DNA of 64,000 nt from the sequence record PQ657772.1. One strand, written 5' to 3'. Made by a program: the position numbers and the translations under genes. This stretch comes from Escherichia phage EC.P1. Position 1 is the stretch's first letter. The number at the start of each line of letters is the position of its first letter. Shown here one piece after another: positions 29,908 to 41,306 of the stretch. The notes under the pieces are model-generated. The model searched no databases. It was not told the origin of the DNA and worked only from the letters and a program-made list of their open reading frames with translations.

Positions 29908-30699
29908 TTAGATTTCAAATACAAATTTAGGATCGTAATCGAAGTTCTCACATGCACCACTGTAAGATTCATAACCTCTTGGATTACAAATGATACGAGT
30001 TTTCCCAATGTTGTAGTCAAAGCTACTATGAACGTGACCATGAATCCAAACATCAGCACCCAAATCTTCGATGTACTGGTCCATATCAGAACAATAACAT
30101 CCATTCAGTGAGTCATTCTTGTATCTCGGAGATACACTCTGATAACTTGGTGCATGATGTGTTACCACCACAACCTTGAAATCATTATCATTCATTAGAC
30201 GAACTGTGTTAACTGAATTTTTGATAAATTGTTTATCCTGATGATGCATGAACTCAACATCATCAGGTTTGAGCTTACGTTTCCACGGTTCTGATGTTGT
30301 TCCATGACGAATGTGTTTATAATCATTCATCTTTTGTTGAGCATCAAACTTAACCAGTGCGTTGCCTTTATCAAAGTCAGTCCACAGTGTACTACCAACC
30401 AGCAGTACACCATCCAGCCATACAAATTTGTTTTGCAAAAAGATGAAATTTGGAATCTCATCTTGCATATCGGACAGTACTTTATTAGTCTTGTGAATGT
30501 TTGAACCGTAGTACTCATGATTACCAGGAACCAGTACTACATTCTTGAACTGCTTGCACAGGGATTCGATGCCAGTACGATAACGACTACGTTTAACTTC
30601 ATCAAAATCCCCAGCGATAATCAGTACTGTATCACTGTAATCACCACTATGGAGGTAATCAGTGCCACCGTGTACGTCTGACGTTACAACAAATTTCAT
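29908..30699 (-). CDS. calcineurin-like metallophosphoesterase
   Basis: 263 aa; SDVHGG, AGDF, GNHEYYG, HGHVH metal-binding motifs. Confidence 0.7.
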   Translation of the reverse strand: MKFVVTSDVHGGTDYLHSGDYSDTVLIIAGDFDEVKRSRYRTGIESLCKQFKNVVLVPGNHEYYGSNIHKTNKVLSDMQDEIPNFIFLQNKFVWLDGVLLVGSTLWTDFDKGNALVKFDAQQKMNDYKHIRHGTTSEPWKRKLKPDDVEFMHHQDKQFIKNSVNTVRLMNDNDFKVVVVTHHAPSYQSVSPRYKNDSLNGCYCSDMDQYIEDLGADVWIHGHVHSSFDYNIGKTRIICNPRGYESYSGACENFDYDPKFVFEI

Positions 30700-30718
30700 A
30701 ATTACCTCCTATAAATGA

Positions 30719-32137
30719 TTAACCAAGTGATTCAAGAATACTGTTAGAGAACACCTCAACAGCACTATCACGAATTTCTAAGATACGAGTATAGTCGTCA
30801 CAGGTGTTTTTGTCAAATCTAAATTCAATAAACACTGGTAAAAATAGTGATGGATCACCAGTACGCTTATCGAATACAATATCATTGCACTCTACTGTCA
30901 CTACTTGACCAATGAGTTCTTGCATTCTTTCCCAAATGGTTTTAAACGTCCATTCTGCGTCTTTCTCTTTAATTCCAGTACCTACATTAACTTTCAATGT
31001 ACCACAAGCACTTTCCAGTTGTAAAGAACCAAGGCTACCTTTACGCTTACCTTCACCTTCATTGAAACCAACAATACGCAAGTCCAATTGCATTTTAAGT
31101 TTCATTTTCAACTGCTTAGGAGAAGTGTGAGATTTCCAGATACCATCTTCACATTTCAGTACTGAACCCTCTTCACCTTCGTTCATTAGTTCACTATTGT
31201 ACTCAAATGCTTCTTTGATGTTTAGAACTTTACGGAATCCAACCATACGAACAAAATCACTACCGAGTTCGTTAATTGCATCTACTAAGATCTCGCGGCG
31301 TTCTTTGCGTTTTACATCCCATACACCTTCACAAAATGCATCATATGGAACAACATCCCATAGAACGAATACAGTACGCATTGCTTCATTCTGACTGATG
31401 CTATCTTTACCAGCTTTCTGAATGATACCGTTACCAGTAGTGCGTGGGAGAATGGTTTCTCCATCATTGTCCAGTACTACACCTTCACCCATAAAGACTA
31501 CACCACTACTAAAACGTTCATCTTTACTTTGGATGATGTGAGCAAGACCTGCCATTTCACCATCACGACAACCCAGGAAGTCGTATAGTTTGCCATTACG
31601 GGATGTAGAAGTTAATGAACCATTAATGACAACGTGGTTCAAGTACTGACCATCCATTTTAACTTCTGATATAGCATAACCATAATCTTTGAAGTTAATG
31701 TTCTTTGCAGTCTTTTTGTCAATCAAAGAACAACGCATGTATGGTTCGTCTTTGATGAAACCTTTCCCGAACACATCATTACAGTTCTTTTCTTGGATAC
31801 CACAATCAAGGTTCTTCGTGAGCATTTTACGAAGAACTTCTTGGTCATCTTCTGATACAGAACCCAGTACTGAAGCAATGAAGTCACGTCCAGCATTTCC
31901 GGTCACACCACGTTTGTAAATGCATTCTAGCTTATCAATTGCTTCGTCTAATGTCATATGTTGGTATACATCATCAGCTTGTGGTAGCTTTTTATATCCA
32001 CTTACAATTGAAGGGTCTAGTGTATATTTCAGTACTTTTTGTAATGTTTGGTTATCTTTGTTTTGTTCAAGGATAGATTTTTTACCCAGAGTACTGCTAG
32101 TATTTTTAATGCTTTCAAGAATTGCTAAAATGCTCAT
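30719..32137 (-). CDS. ATP-dependent DNA ligase (T4 gp30-like)
   Basis: 472 aa; N-terminus resembles T4 DNA ligase; adenylation motif EVKMDGQ (KxDG). Confidence 0.85.
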   Translation of the reverse strand: MSILAILESIKNTSSTLGKKSILEQNKDNQTLQKVLKYTLDPSIVSGYKKLPQADDVYQHMTLDEAIDKLECIYKRGVTGNAGRDFIASVLGSVSEDDQEVLRKMLTKNLDCGIQEKNCNDVFGKGFIKDEPYMRCSLIDKKTAKNINFKDYGYAISEVKMDGQYLNHVVINGSLTSTSRNGKLYDFLGCRDGEMAGLAHIIQSKDERFSSGVVFMGEGVVLDNDGETILPRTTGNGIIQKAGKDSISQNEAMRTVFVLWDVVPYDAFCEGVWDVKRKERREILVDAINELGSDFVRMVGFRKVLNIKEAFEYNSELMNEGEEGSVLKCEDGIWKSHTSPKQLKMKLKMQLDLRIVGFNEGEGKRKGSLGSLQLESACGTLKVNVGTGIKEKDAEWTFKTIWERMQELIGQVVTVECNDIVFDKRTGDPSLFLPVFIEFRFDKNTCDDYTRILEIRDSAVEVFSNSILESLG

Positions 32138-32148
32138 TGTATATTCCC

Positions 32149-39870: not shown

Positions 39871-39879
39871 ATGAACTCC

Positions 39880-40137
39880 TTATAGTGGGTCGAATTTATT
39901 TTCACGTTTCGATGTATAGCGAGTTACATCATGTATTCTCGGCTTAACACCTTTTGGTTTCCTTTTCTTCTTGTATTCAGTACTACTACACCCGAAAGTA
40001 TTCTCGATTCGTTTCTTACTAATCTTCACACCTTTCTTAGAGCGTTTGTGCTGTAATTCATCGATTTCTTCTTGTATTTTCCTGAATTCTGTCGGAGAAA
40101 GGGAACCGTCATTTTTATACTTAGGTTTAGCCATCAC
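39880..40137 (-). CDS. small basic protein
   Basis: 85 aa, Lys/Arg-rich. Confidence 0.4.
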   Translation of the reverse strand: MMAKPKYKNDGSLSPTEFRKIQEEIDELQHKRSKKGVKISKKRIENTFGCSSTEYKKKRKPKGVKPRIHDVTRYTSKRENKFDPL

Positions 40138-40163
40138 TTCTCCTTGTGCTAGGCTAGATAGTA

Positions 40164-41306
40164 CTAAAAATCCTTTAGTACAATTTTCATGTACTTAATA
40201 AGAGTCTCTTTGTAATCGACTTTCTTATTGTTGTACATTGCAAAGGCCAAGCCCTGACGATTCAGTTCATTAGTTAAACACTCCTGAACCTTCTTAGCGA
40301 ATTCCTTTCGCTCCAAGTGCTTGTGTTCCTTGACGAAGCTTTCAACTTCATCTTGTAAAGCATTATAGCACGAAAAGACTAGTTGTTCCATTCTTAATAT
40401 CTTTTGGGTAGCATATTCGTCAGTACTGAACAACTGTTTTAAATCATCACTCGAACCATTTAATACAGCTTCATATAAATGGGAATCGATTATAATACTG
40501 TCTTTCGTTAAATGCAAAGAACAATACCAGTCGGTTTTGATTTTGCACATTGTACCATTATTTAGGATGCACACAAAACCTTCAATGTCAAGCATTTTCT
40601 TAACTTCTTCAACACTTTCTTTGAATGTAGCACGAACAGGGAAAGTGTAATGAATATCTTTACCTGTCATGTTAGTACTGTACTGTGCAAGGCATGGAAA
40701 CTTGTTACGTAATGCAGAACCACATAATAGTTCACCACTCTTGCGATGGCGAACGTTTAGTACAAATATTTGTTCAACCTGGTATGGTAATACAATACGG
40801 TACTCTGGACTTGTATACTCCAGATTAACAGTATAGCCCAAACGGTCTGCTTCGTCAATGTATTGATACAAATTTTGGTTCTCATTGAGAAGACGAGTAC
40901 TGTTAATCGCATGATCTGAATACAATGCAGTATGTGATTTACAACGAATTACACCATCATTATCACGGTAAGTACTGATTACTGAACCATCCAACTTAGG
41001 CATCACTACTGTAATGTCATCGAATGTGGTATCAGCAGGGAACATTGTAGCAGGATTTTCGTAAGCATTGAAGAACTTTTTCATAGTACGAGCAGCACAA
41101 CGAATCATATCACCGTCTTCATCAATTTCCCACATAGAACCACGTGTTTCTAATGCATTGGGTTGCATGAAATCGGTATATGATGCTAGACGATAACTGA
41201 ATACACGATACGTTCCACCAGCAGGACTTTTATGATCCACATAAAAGAAAGCCTCACGGGTATTACATAAGTGCATTAAATCTTCATATATTTGTAAAAG
41301 GGTCAT
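40164..41306 (-). CDS. rnlA: RNA ligase 1 (T4 RnlA-like)
   Basis: 380 aa; GGTYRVFSY, nucleotidyl-transfer motif MPKLDGS (KxDG), CKIKTDWY; collinear with T4 Rnl1. Confidence 0.9.
   Translation of the reverse strand: MTLLQIYEDLMHLCNTREAFFYVDHKSPAGGTYRVFSYRLASYTDFMQPNALETRGSMWEIDEDGDMIRCAARTMKKFFNAYENPATMFPADTTFDDITVVMPKLDGSVISTYRDNDGVIRCKSHTALYSDHAINSTRLLNENQNLYQYIDEADRLGYTVNLEYTSPEYRIVLPYQVEQIFVLNVRHRKSGELLCGSALRNKFPCLAQYSTNMTGKDIHYTFPVRATFKESVEEVKKMLDIEGFVCILNNGTMCKIKTDWYCSLHLTKDSIIIDSHLYEAVLNGSSDDLKQLFSTDEYATQKILRMEQLVFSCYNALQDEVESFVKEHKHLERKEFAKKVQECLTNELNRQGLAFAMYNNKKVDYKETLIKYMKIVLKDF

Follow-up and report, generated by a model that had tools for sequence, protein, structure and literature searches.

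Predicted T4-type tRNA repair genes, a gp30-type DNA ligase and accessory hydrolases in an early-gene block of a PBECO4-like jumbo coliphage

Six genes in an 11-kb part (positions 29,908 to 41,306) of a 64,000-nucleotide stretch of Escherichia phage EC.P1 (PQ657772.1; the whole stretch is hereafter the window) encode a T4-type polynucleotide 5'-kinase/3'-phosphatase (Pnk), a T4-type RNA ligase 1 (Rnl1), an ATP-dependent DNA ligase, two metallophosphatases and a PTH2-like protein. An earlier note on this DNA, made from the sequence, had grouped them as one dispersed set for nucleic-acid repair and processing. Based on the computational analysis reported here, the block is probably better understood as three functionally separate things, namely a tRNA repair cassette of Rnl1 and Pnk, a gp30-type DNA ligase and a group of accessory hydrolases, held together in an early-gene block that was inherited with T4-like order. 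Three proteins with putative substrates make up the accessory hydrolases: a PPP phosphatase of lambda type, a PTH2-fold protein that is divergent, and a phosphodiesterase resembling PptH and MPPED2. The observation of the six genes was correct and their annotations are sound, and existing annotations and reviews already cover the content.

Results

Judged by its sequence, the window is part of a PBECO4-like jumbo coliphage of the genus Asteriusvirus: about 13 kb around the block are 98-99% identical to the Asteriusvirus genomes Turkey3, Ecwhy_1, fEgEco12 and vB_Ec-M-J, and 88% identical to PBECO4 itself. Every gene of the region lies on the minus strand, at a uniform G+C content of 31-39%. Open reading frames (ORFs) are present at the coordinates given for all six genes (Table 1), and each of the six family assignments is borne out by matches to Pfam, PHROG, structures or curated models. 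The records of relatives already name a DNA ligase, an RNA ligase, a polynucleotide kinase, a calcineurin-like phosphoesterase, a serine/threonine phosphatase and a 'hydrolase'.

The tRNA repair assignment is carried by Rnl1 and Pnk. Rnl1 scores 289 bits with TIGR02308, above the equivalog cut-off of 242.25, and matches both the T4 Rnl1 structure 2C5U (E 5.5e-57) and the T4 rnlA protein (35% identity, E 1.6e-62). The C-terminal domain, which is reported to confer tRNA specificity, is present at residues 268-379 (PF20819 T4_Rnl1_C, 60.5 bits, cut-off 27). Motif I (K104-L-D-G), E242-G and K255/K257 align with T4 K99, E227/G228 and K240/K242, and 12 of the 13 T4 Rnl1 positions taken as essential are retained. 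Pnk combines an AAA_33 domain (E 1.2e-12) with HAD_PNKP (PF25109, 148.8 bits, E 1.5e-43, cut-off 27.6) and matches the T4 Pnk structure 1LTQ (E 8.5e-39) as well as the T4 pseT protein (33% identity, E 5.6e-46). At the kinase site, GCGKT (K15/T16), D36 and R39 align with T4 K15/S16/D35/R38; at the phosphatase site, D180-I-D182-G-T aligns with T4 D165/D167, and R191, R229, D262 and D285/D286 are retained. Homology, kept catalytic residues and the Rnl1 C-terminal domain thus all support the T4-type tRNA repair pair that had been predicted from the sequence. The combination of Pnk and Rnl1 is the classic means by which phages counter host anticodon nucleases, and in T4 the repair of tRNA by PseT and RnlA counters the anticodon nuclease PrrC. 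By homology to T4, Pnk would strip the 2',3'-cyclic or 3'-phosphate from tRNA cut by host anticodon nucleases and phosphorylate the 5'-OH, and Rnl1 would then reseal the healed tRNA halves.

The gap between Pnk and Rnl1, put at about 1 kb in the earlier note, measures 822 bp. The cassette is ordered as Rnl1, three small ORFs of which two are conserved, Pnk and a terminator-like hairpin, the last being a pattern match that suggests that the cassette ends a transcription unit. The very basic 85-aa (amino acid) protein is 60% identical to gp073 of Serratia phage BF (Eneladusvirus), which is located identically; no Pfam family was matched by it. The 78-aa protein is 69% identical to BF gp075, a value exceeding those of Pnk (55%) and Rnl1 (57%). 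It occurs in 70 phage records, exclusively of RaK2-like jumbo phages and every one at no less than 60% identity, and in BF, RaK2 and Xanthomonas XbC2 and XaC1, the four phages whose neighbourhoods were looked at, its gene adjoins Pnk or lies a short way upstream of it. Neither the 85-aa nor the 78-aa protein is mentioned in the earlier note; both may act as accessory factors to the Rnl1-Pnk repair pair. For the third small ORF, of 109 aa, a BF counterpart was not found at E 1e-3.

Table 1. Features of the window discussed in the text. Positions are those of the 64,000-nucleotide stretch.
Feature	Coordinates	Strand	Length	Assignment and remarks
RNA ligase 1, T4-type (RnlA)	40164..41306	minus	380 aa	Nucleotidyltransferase domain and Rnl1 C-terminal domain; PF09511, PF20819
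Very basic protein	39880..40137	minus	85 aa	phrog_15306, E 5e-41; between Rnl1 and Pnk
Small protein	39634..39870	minus	78 aa	phrog_14730; between Rnl1 and Pnk
Small ORF	39345..39674	minus	109 aa	phrog_31355, E 8.4e-56; directly upstream of Pnk
Polynucleotide 5'-kinase/3'-phosphatase, T4-type (PseT)	38409..39341	minus	310 aa	AAA_33 and HAD_PNKP
Terminator-like hairpin	38379..38405	minus		11-pair stem and T-rich tail, 3 nt past the Pnk stop; consensus scan, pattern match only
Lambda/NinI-type PPP-family phosphatase	34270..35013	minus	247 aa	phrog_246, E 7.9e-66; longest ORF reaches 35028
CXXCXGXG zinc-finger protein	33758..33985	minus	75 aa	DnaJ central domain/anti-TRAP-like; phrog_12574; end overlaps start of PTH2-like ORF
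Divergent PTH2-fold protein	33348..33767	minus	139 aa	Longest ORF; 33348-33761 as annotated in relatives; phrog_3668 ('hydrolase')
Conserved protein	32149..33351	minus	400 aa	phrog_14061; between PTH2-like gene and ligase
ATP-dependent DNA ligase, T4 gp30 type	30719..32137	minus	472 aa	phrog_114, E 4.6e-118; PF01068, 51.5 bits
Stand-alone metallophosphoesterase, PptH/MPPED2-like	29908..30699	minus	263 aa	phrog_1649; PF00149
ClpP-family protease	28365-29060	minus		142.9 bits; early region, downstream of metallophosphoesterase
SIR2-family gene	22892-23644	minus		Overlaps Nudt16-like NUDIX gene (22344-22895) by 4 nt
PIN-domain and PhoH ATPase fusion	20214-21653	minus		PhoH2-type RNA helicase/RNase architecture
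Protein with C-terminal WGR domain	17069-18040	minus	323 aa	N-terminal 250 residues without assigned domain
RlaP-family nucleotidyltransferase (PF10127)	1591..2829	minus	412 aa	63 bits (cut-off 23), E 4.5e-17; phrog_388, E 4e-75
Tandem array of six paralogous small ORFs	45658-47797	minus	86-103 aa	Iterated hidden Markov model (HMM) search
Two large paralogues	4901-10943	minus	909 and 898 aa	About 27-29% identity to each other; they flank a 195-aa protein paralogous to their C-terminal part

The DNA ligase is 30.5% identical to T4 gp30 (E 3e-45) and aligns with the T4 ligase structure 6DT1 over residues 3-163 and 227-449 (E 1.8e-43); the T4-type N-terminal DNA-binding domain (5WFY, E 6e-13), the adenylation domain and the OB domain are present, and motif I (K160-M-D-G), E323 and K344/K346 (motifs IV/V) are retained. 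A gp30-type DNA ligase would serve replication and recombination. Regarding its position, T4 carries rnlA, alc, pseT.3-.1, pseT, cd and gene 30 on one strand within 11.7 kb, and in the window Rnl1 through ligase take up 10.6 kb. Only Rnl1, Pnk and the ligase among the window proteins match the T4 region by blastp; the intervening ORFs, considered as homologues of T4 alc, pseT.1-.3, cd.x and 30.x, gave no blastp match and were rejected as such. The order of Rnl1, small ORFs, Pnk, many small ORFs, NinI-type phosphatase, PTH2-like protein, a protein of about 400 aa and ligase is common to BF and to Klebsiella phage RaK2 (Alcyoneusvirus), with block proteins at 29-67% identity. The grouping of the six genes is not a matter of chance, because the order is retained in these other genera and that of Rnl1, Pnk and ligase is as in T4. 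Given that these three genes stand in T4 transcription order, the grouping seems to be early-region synteny inherited among T4-related large myoviruses, with Rnl1 and Pnk as a compact cassette at one end, and neither a new module nor a single operon.

About 14 small unrelated ORFs lie between Pnk and the lambda-type phosphatase, and conservation between BF and the window does not extend to them. The sole pair with any similarity among the small ORFs is weak (35013-35342 and 37923-38183, E 7e-4), and the idea of a single SH3-like paralogue family filling the spaces between the enzymes was dropped when an iterated HMM search gave no extension. A scan for sigma-70 promoters returned 68 matches against 75 expected from shuffles, hence no enrichment.

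The 263-aa metallophosphoesterase is assigned by PF00149 (52.6 bits, E 1e-13, cut-off 21.5), and its five metal motifs (D8/H10, G30-D31, G59-N60-H61-E62, H181, G221-H222-x-H224) show little or no variation among 59 homologues. An AlphaFold (AF2) model built from 59 homologues is a single domain with a predicted local distance difference test (pLDDT) score of 96. The best Foldseek match to the model in the PDB is M. tuberculosis PptH (6UNC; E 4e-11, template modelling (TM) score 0.65, 20% identity). Further matches include MPPED2, Dbr1, aq_1956, TT1561 and Rv0805, GpdQ is also among the closest, and SbcD/Mre11 first appears at rank 22 with a TM score of about 0.46. The sequence profile search returned 6UNC, Lmo2642 (2XMO), purple acid phosphatases and MPPED2, and Mre11/SbcD was absent from its matches. 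Additionally, PBECO4 encodes a Rad50 zinc-hook ATPase (gp528) and a metallophosphoesterase of 343 aa (gp529), next to a gene whose annotation reads 'sigma factor for late transcription'; the trio resembles the T4 gp47/gp46/gp55 arrangement. The fold ranking, the profile search and the separate gp46/gp47-like pair of PBECO4 rule out that the 263-aa enzyme is an Mre11/SbcD nuclease, and the grouping with such recombination nucleases, which the earlier note had named as speaking against its proposal, was looked for and not observed. The enzyme is probably an independent, dispensable accessory phosphodiesterase and not the Mre11/SbcD of the phage.

The genomic contexts of this enzyme are varied. 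Its family comprises 194 phage records, including cyanophages and phages of Rhizobium, Caulobacter and Brevundimonas. In the window, the gene starts 19 bp downstream of the ligase and has the ligase and small ORFs as neighbours. In RaK2, the slot between the ligase and a ClpP-like protease holds a CapR-domain endonuclease while the other block genes remain; the 274-aa ORF found there was considered as a homologue and rejected for its CapR-domain identity. Vibrio phage nt-1 has a homologue near Sir2, 2.4 kb upstream of the gp30 ligase; that of Caulobacter phage CcrColossus is placed between tRNA arrays beside a peptide deformylase, and that of Rhizobium phage RL38J1 is next to a YAcAr SLOG-domain gene. 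One Vibrio phage homologue is annotated as a 3',5'-cyclic AMP (cAMP) phosphodiesterase, and the window protein has a weak CpdA-type match (PRK11148, E 8e-4). The second metallophosphatase matches lambda phosphatase 1G5B (E 3.3e-16) with GDLHG, GDVIDRG (GDxxDRG), GNHE, HAG and GHT aligned; its match to PRK11439 (E 6.5e-17, 62 bits) is far under the PrpA/PrpB equivalog cut-off of 326. For neither metallophosphatase was there a computed link to RNA ends or 2',3'-cyclic phosphate ends.

The PTH2-like call for the 139-aa protein, tentative when first made, holds at the level of the predicted fold, and the lack of any PTH2-fold similarity, the other outcome named as adverse, is not what we find. The top 14 Foldseek matches of its predicted model (pLDDT 77.5, built from only seven sequences) are all PTH2 structures, followed by a sharp drop. 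A family profile search reached 1,274 cluster representatives at E ≤0.001, and 31 of 92 sampled family members match Pfam PTH2 (E ≤0.01, best 2.5e-8), with no rival family. The NCBIfam Pth2 equivalog gives 18.1 bits against a cut-off of 126. As its sequence indicates, the protein is a member of a large divergent family, not a canonical Pth2. Residues were mapped by aligning the family profile to a solved PTH2 and counting 92 family members. The helix-1 'Q..HA' motif is shared with PTH2, and its Q21 and H24 do not vary within the family; N10, H49, T51, E83 and T91 are nearly invariant. The position of the 'DAG' aspartate (E83) is Glu in 91 members and Asp in one.

RaK2 helps to place the family, since it has two PTH2-fold genes (L023:14254-14667 / L021:17041-17478). 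ORF188 is a canonical Pth2 (Pfam 58.6 bits) carrying the 'GK', and ORF483 is a member of the divergent family (19.7 bits); the latter shares 47% identity with the window protein, is annotated 'hydrolase' and has the NinI-type phosphatase gene as its neighbour. The 'Pth2' of the RaK2 paper is ORF188 (PMC3622015). To equate the 139-aa protein with that published enzyme would thus be mistaken, ORF483 being its orthologue. A homologue of ORF188 was not found in PBECO4 or the window, where the divergent gene is the only one of PTH2 fold. The phrog_3668 family covers 269 phage records (RaK2-like jumbo, KVP40-like, Aeromonas T4-like, Vequintavirinae and others). In Rheinheimera phage Barba19A, a CCA-adding enzyme, the PTH2-like protein and RlaP are encoded in that order, the PTH2-like gene overlapping the end of the CCA-adding enzyme gene by 4 nt, and in Klebsiella phage BIS47 the genes for CCA-adding enzyme, PTH2-like protein and RlaP lie within 4.4 kb.

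The window itself carries an RlaP-family gene, 27 kb from the block and not listed in the earlier note. The CCA-adding enzyme annotated in PBECO4 is encoded some 16 kb beyond the position that matches the window start. RlaP adds one or two nucleoside monophosphates to damaged RNA 3' ends and lets repaired tRNA that was trimmed too far be aminoacylated again (PMC12776372). PTH2, RlaP, CCA-adding enzyme, Pnk-HAD and RNA ligases make up the RNA repair repertoire described for jumbo phages (Iyer et al. 2021, PMC7824862), and the Pnk and RNA ligase of RaK2 have been named RNA repair proteins (PMC3622015). As part of such a wider RNA repair kit, the PTH2-fold protein would most likely act on the acylated tRNA 3' end, a role suggested because its family is found in CCA-adding enzyme/RlaP neighbourhoods in two unrelated phage lineages.

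Two further proteins of the block were analysed. The 75-aa zinc-finger protein matches Anti-TRAP (E 2.2e-07) and DnaJ_CXXCXGXG (E 2.7e-06), both under their cut-offs. The 400-aa protein has 29% identity to BF gp092 in the equivalent slot, which in RaK2 is filled by the 404-aa ORF485; no Pfam or PDB sequence match was obtained for it, even with an 11-sequence profile.

Elsewhere in the window (Table 1), the Sir2-NUDIX pair may be related to NAD (nicotinamide adenine dinucleotide)/ADP-ribose or to RNA caps; such a pair is also annotated in RaK2. Besides the ClpP-family protease gene downstream of the metallophosphoesterase, relatives have more genes annotated as ClpP-like or 'protease' near window positions ~23877-25428; the two ORFs there had no Pfam match in our analysis.

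Discussion

The proposal that the whole 11-kb set is one coordinated end-processing module would have the metallophosphatases open 2',3'-cyclic phosphate or otherwise blocked ends, Pnk and Rnl1 repair tRNA, the PTH2 protein free tRNA and the ligase repair DNA. There is evidence that such a module would explain: phosphatase, PTH2-like protein, ~400-aa protein and ligase (plus the metallophosphoesterase) keep their order across genera at just 29-62% identity, the metallophosphoesterase gene is close to the ligase gene both here and in nt-1, the PTH2-like gene adjoins a gp30 ligase in Aeromonas phage CC2, and lambda phosphatase as well as the calcineurin-type domain of Clostridium thermocellum Pnkp show 2',3'-cyclic phosphodiesterase activity in vitro. 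Nonetheless, we consider the single module improbable. T4 has the same order of Rnl1, Pnk and ligase without the accessory enzymes, and the order is therefore explained by inheritance. The ligase is of the replicative gp30 type, and end opening by a separate phosphatase would duplicate what a T4-type Pnk already supplies in 3'-end healing, its 3'-phosphatase/cyclic phosphodiesterase domain being intact here. The metallophosphoesterase is replaced in its RaK2 slot by the CapR-domain endonuclease while the other genes stay, and it is met in different contexts in Caulobacter and Rhizobium phages. Lastly, between the Pnk cassette and the remaining genes come the terminator-like hairpin and the 14 non-conserved ORFs. 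On these grounds a single repair and processing set of six genes is not supported, and the reading as tRNA repair cassette, gp30-type ligase and accessory hydrolases is preferred.

Within that preferred reading, the substrates of two accessory hydrolases can be discussed. The metallophosphoesterase could be a small-molecule phosphodiesterase for cyclic nucleotides, NAD-derived signals or other metabolites of host defence and physiology, unrelated to nucleic-acid ends. Its closest structures act on non-polymer substrates (PptH as phosphopantetheinyl hydrolase, MPPED2, Rv0805, GpdQ), and the Lmo2642 profile match, the weak PRK11148 match and the Vibrio phage homologue annotated as cAMP phosphodiesterase point the same way, as do the YAcAr SLOG and Sir2 neighbours in RL38J1 and nt-1 and the SIR2 and Nudt16-like NUDIX genes 6 kb downstream in the window. 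We regard this role as possible, though on balance it is not the one to expect: resemblance to every characterised enzyme stays at or below 20% identity and a TM score of 0.66, Dbr1, an RNA 2'-5' phosphodiesterase, is likewise among the matches, and the neighbourhoods are inconsistent across lineages. The PTH2-fold family allows of two opposite interpretations, both of which strike us as rather unlikely. The family might constitute a distinct 'unblocking' enzyme of the tRNA 3' end, equipped with a remodelled active site and working with CCA-adding enzyme and RlaP. If so, it could strip peptidyl, N-acetyl-aminoacyl or toxin-installed groups from A76 so that damaged tRNA is rebuilt, and unblocking would be a step of phage tRNA repair new to biochemistry. 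Conversely, the protein might not be a tRNA-directed esterase, having instead diverged toward another substrate or a purely binding role. That Gln or His stands in place of the 'GK' Lys, and Glu in place of Asp, in nearly the whole sample would fit the latter, as would the location among DNA-metabolism genes in several lineages; that RaK2 has a canonical Pth2 alongside its family member also argues for a different job. The invariant 'Q..HA' and the nearly invariant polar residues, however, fit an active enzyme, the linkage to CCA-adding enzyme and RlaP recurs in two unrelated lineages, and PBECO4 and the window have this protein as their sole PTH2-fold gene.

Several points weigh against the overall account given here. 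The tRNA repair role of Pnk and Rnl1 is carried over from T4 by homology, and two residues fall short of the T4 pattern: T4 Rnl1 K119, taken as essential, aligns to His125, and Pnk R126, in an ambiguous alignment, is the only catalytic position considered for Pnk that is not clearly kept. No tRNA genes were found in the window, and the six tRNA genes of PBECO4 include none for tRNA-Lys, the classic target of PrrC. The conserved order across genera could, moreover, reflect functional coupling. As regards the 139-aa protein, its Pfam PTH2 score (PF01981, 22.7 bits) is just below the gathering cut-off of 23, and the position under the PTH2 'GK' lysine (Q17) is Gln in 67 of the 92 family members, His in 23 and Lys in none; this lysine and the 'DAG' aspartate are K18 and D86 in Sulfolobus solfataricus Pth2, taken as its catalytic pair. 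Given the loss of this lysine, the protein may not hydrolyse peptidyl-tRNA at all. In KVP40-like phages its gene is located among those for dUTPase, exonuclease A and thymidylate synthase, and in the Aeromonas T4-like phage CC2 it stands directly upstream of the gp30 ligase; in neither setting are RNA repair genes its neighbours.

The presence of Pnk and Rnl1 in a PBECO4-like jumbo phage adds nothing new, relatives being annotated in this way and the repertoire having been reviewed. What our study clarifies is that the block represents T4-type synteny and not a module, that the small metallophosphoesterase is not a recombination nuclease and that the PTH2-like protein is one of a widespread family of its own whose active site is altered. 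Its recurrent placement between CCA-adding enzyme and RlaP provides a testable idea on tRNA 3'-end repair in phage-host conflict. Interest remains in this divergent PTH2-fold family, in the two small proteins of the cassette and in the conserved 400-aa protein.

Comparison with known systems

Compared to structurally characterised PTH2 (1WN2, 1XTY, 2ZV3, 1Q7S), the 139-aa protein is distinguished by its sub-threshold score and the exchanges of the GK Lys for Gln/His and of Asp for Glu, and by an extra C-terminal helix (residues 113-134) and the family-specific conservation of Y6, N10, W45, H49 and T51. The metallophosphoesterase shares with PptH (Rv2795c, 6UNC) and MPPED2, its best structural and profile matches, a single-domain architecture with all metal motifs, and differs from them in overall sequence (identity of about 20% or less) and in its context, a phage early region. 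The PPP phosphatase has all motifs of lambda NinI (1G5B) and E. coli PrpA/PrpB and falls in the same PHROG as NinI-like proteins, yet far below the PrpA/PrpB equivalog cut-offs.

The likeness to the T4 PseT and RnlA pathway is closer. The window proteins are full-length homologues of identical domain architecture in which the catalytic motifs are kept, and the genes share one strand, Rnl1 preceding Pnk at a distance of about 1 kb that is filled by small ORFs and the ligase following further downstream. In contrast to T4, the proteins are just 33-35% identical, K119 of Rnl1 is His, and the intervening ORFs are unrelated to alc and pseT.1-.3, two of them being specific to the RaK2-like clade. 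The RaK2-like jumbo phage repertoire differs from that of PBECO4 and the window by the canonical PTH2 (ORF188 of RaK2), and it has in common with them Pnk-HAD, ATP-dependent RNA ligase, RlaP, CCA-adding enzyme and a PTH2-fold protein, the order of the block in RaK2 being identical.

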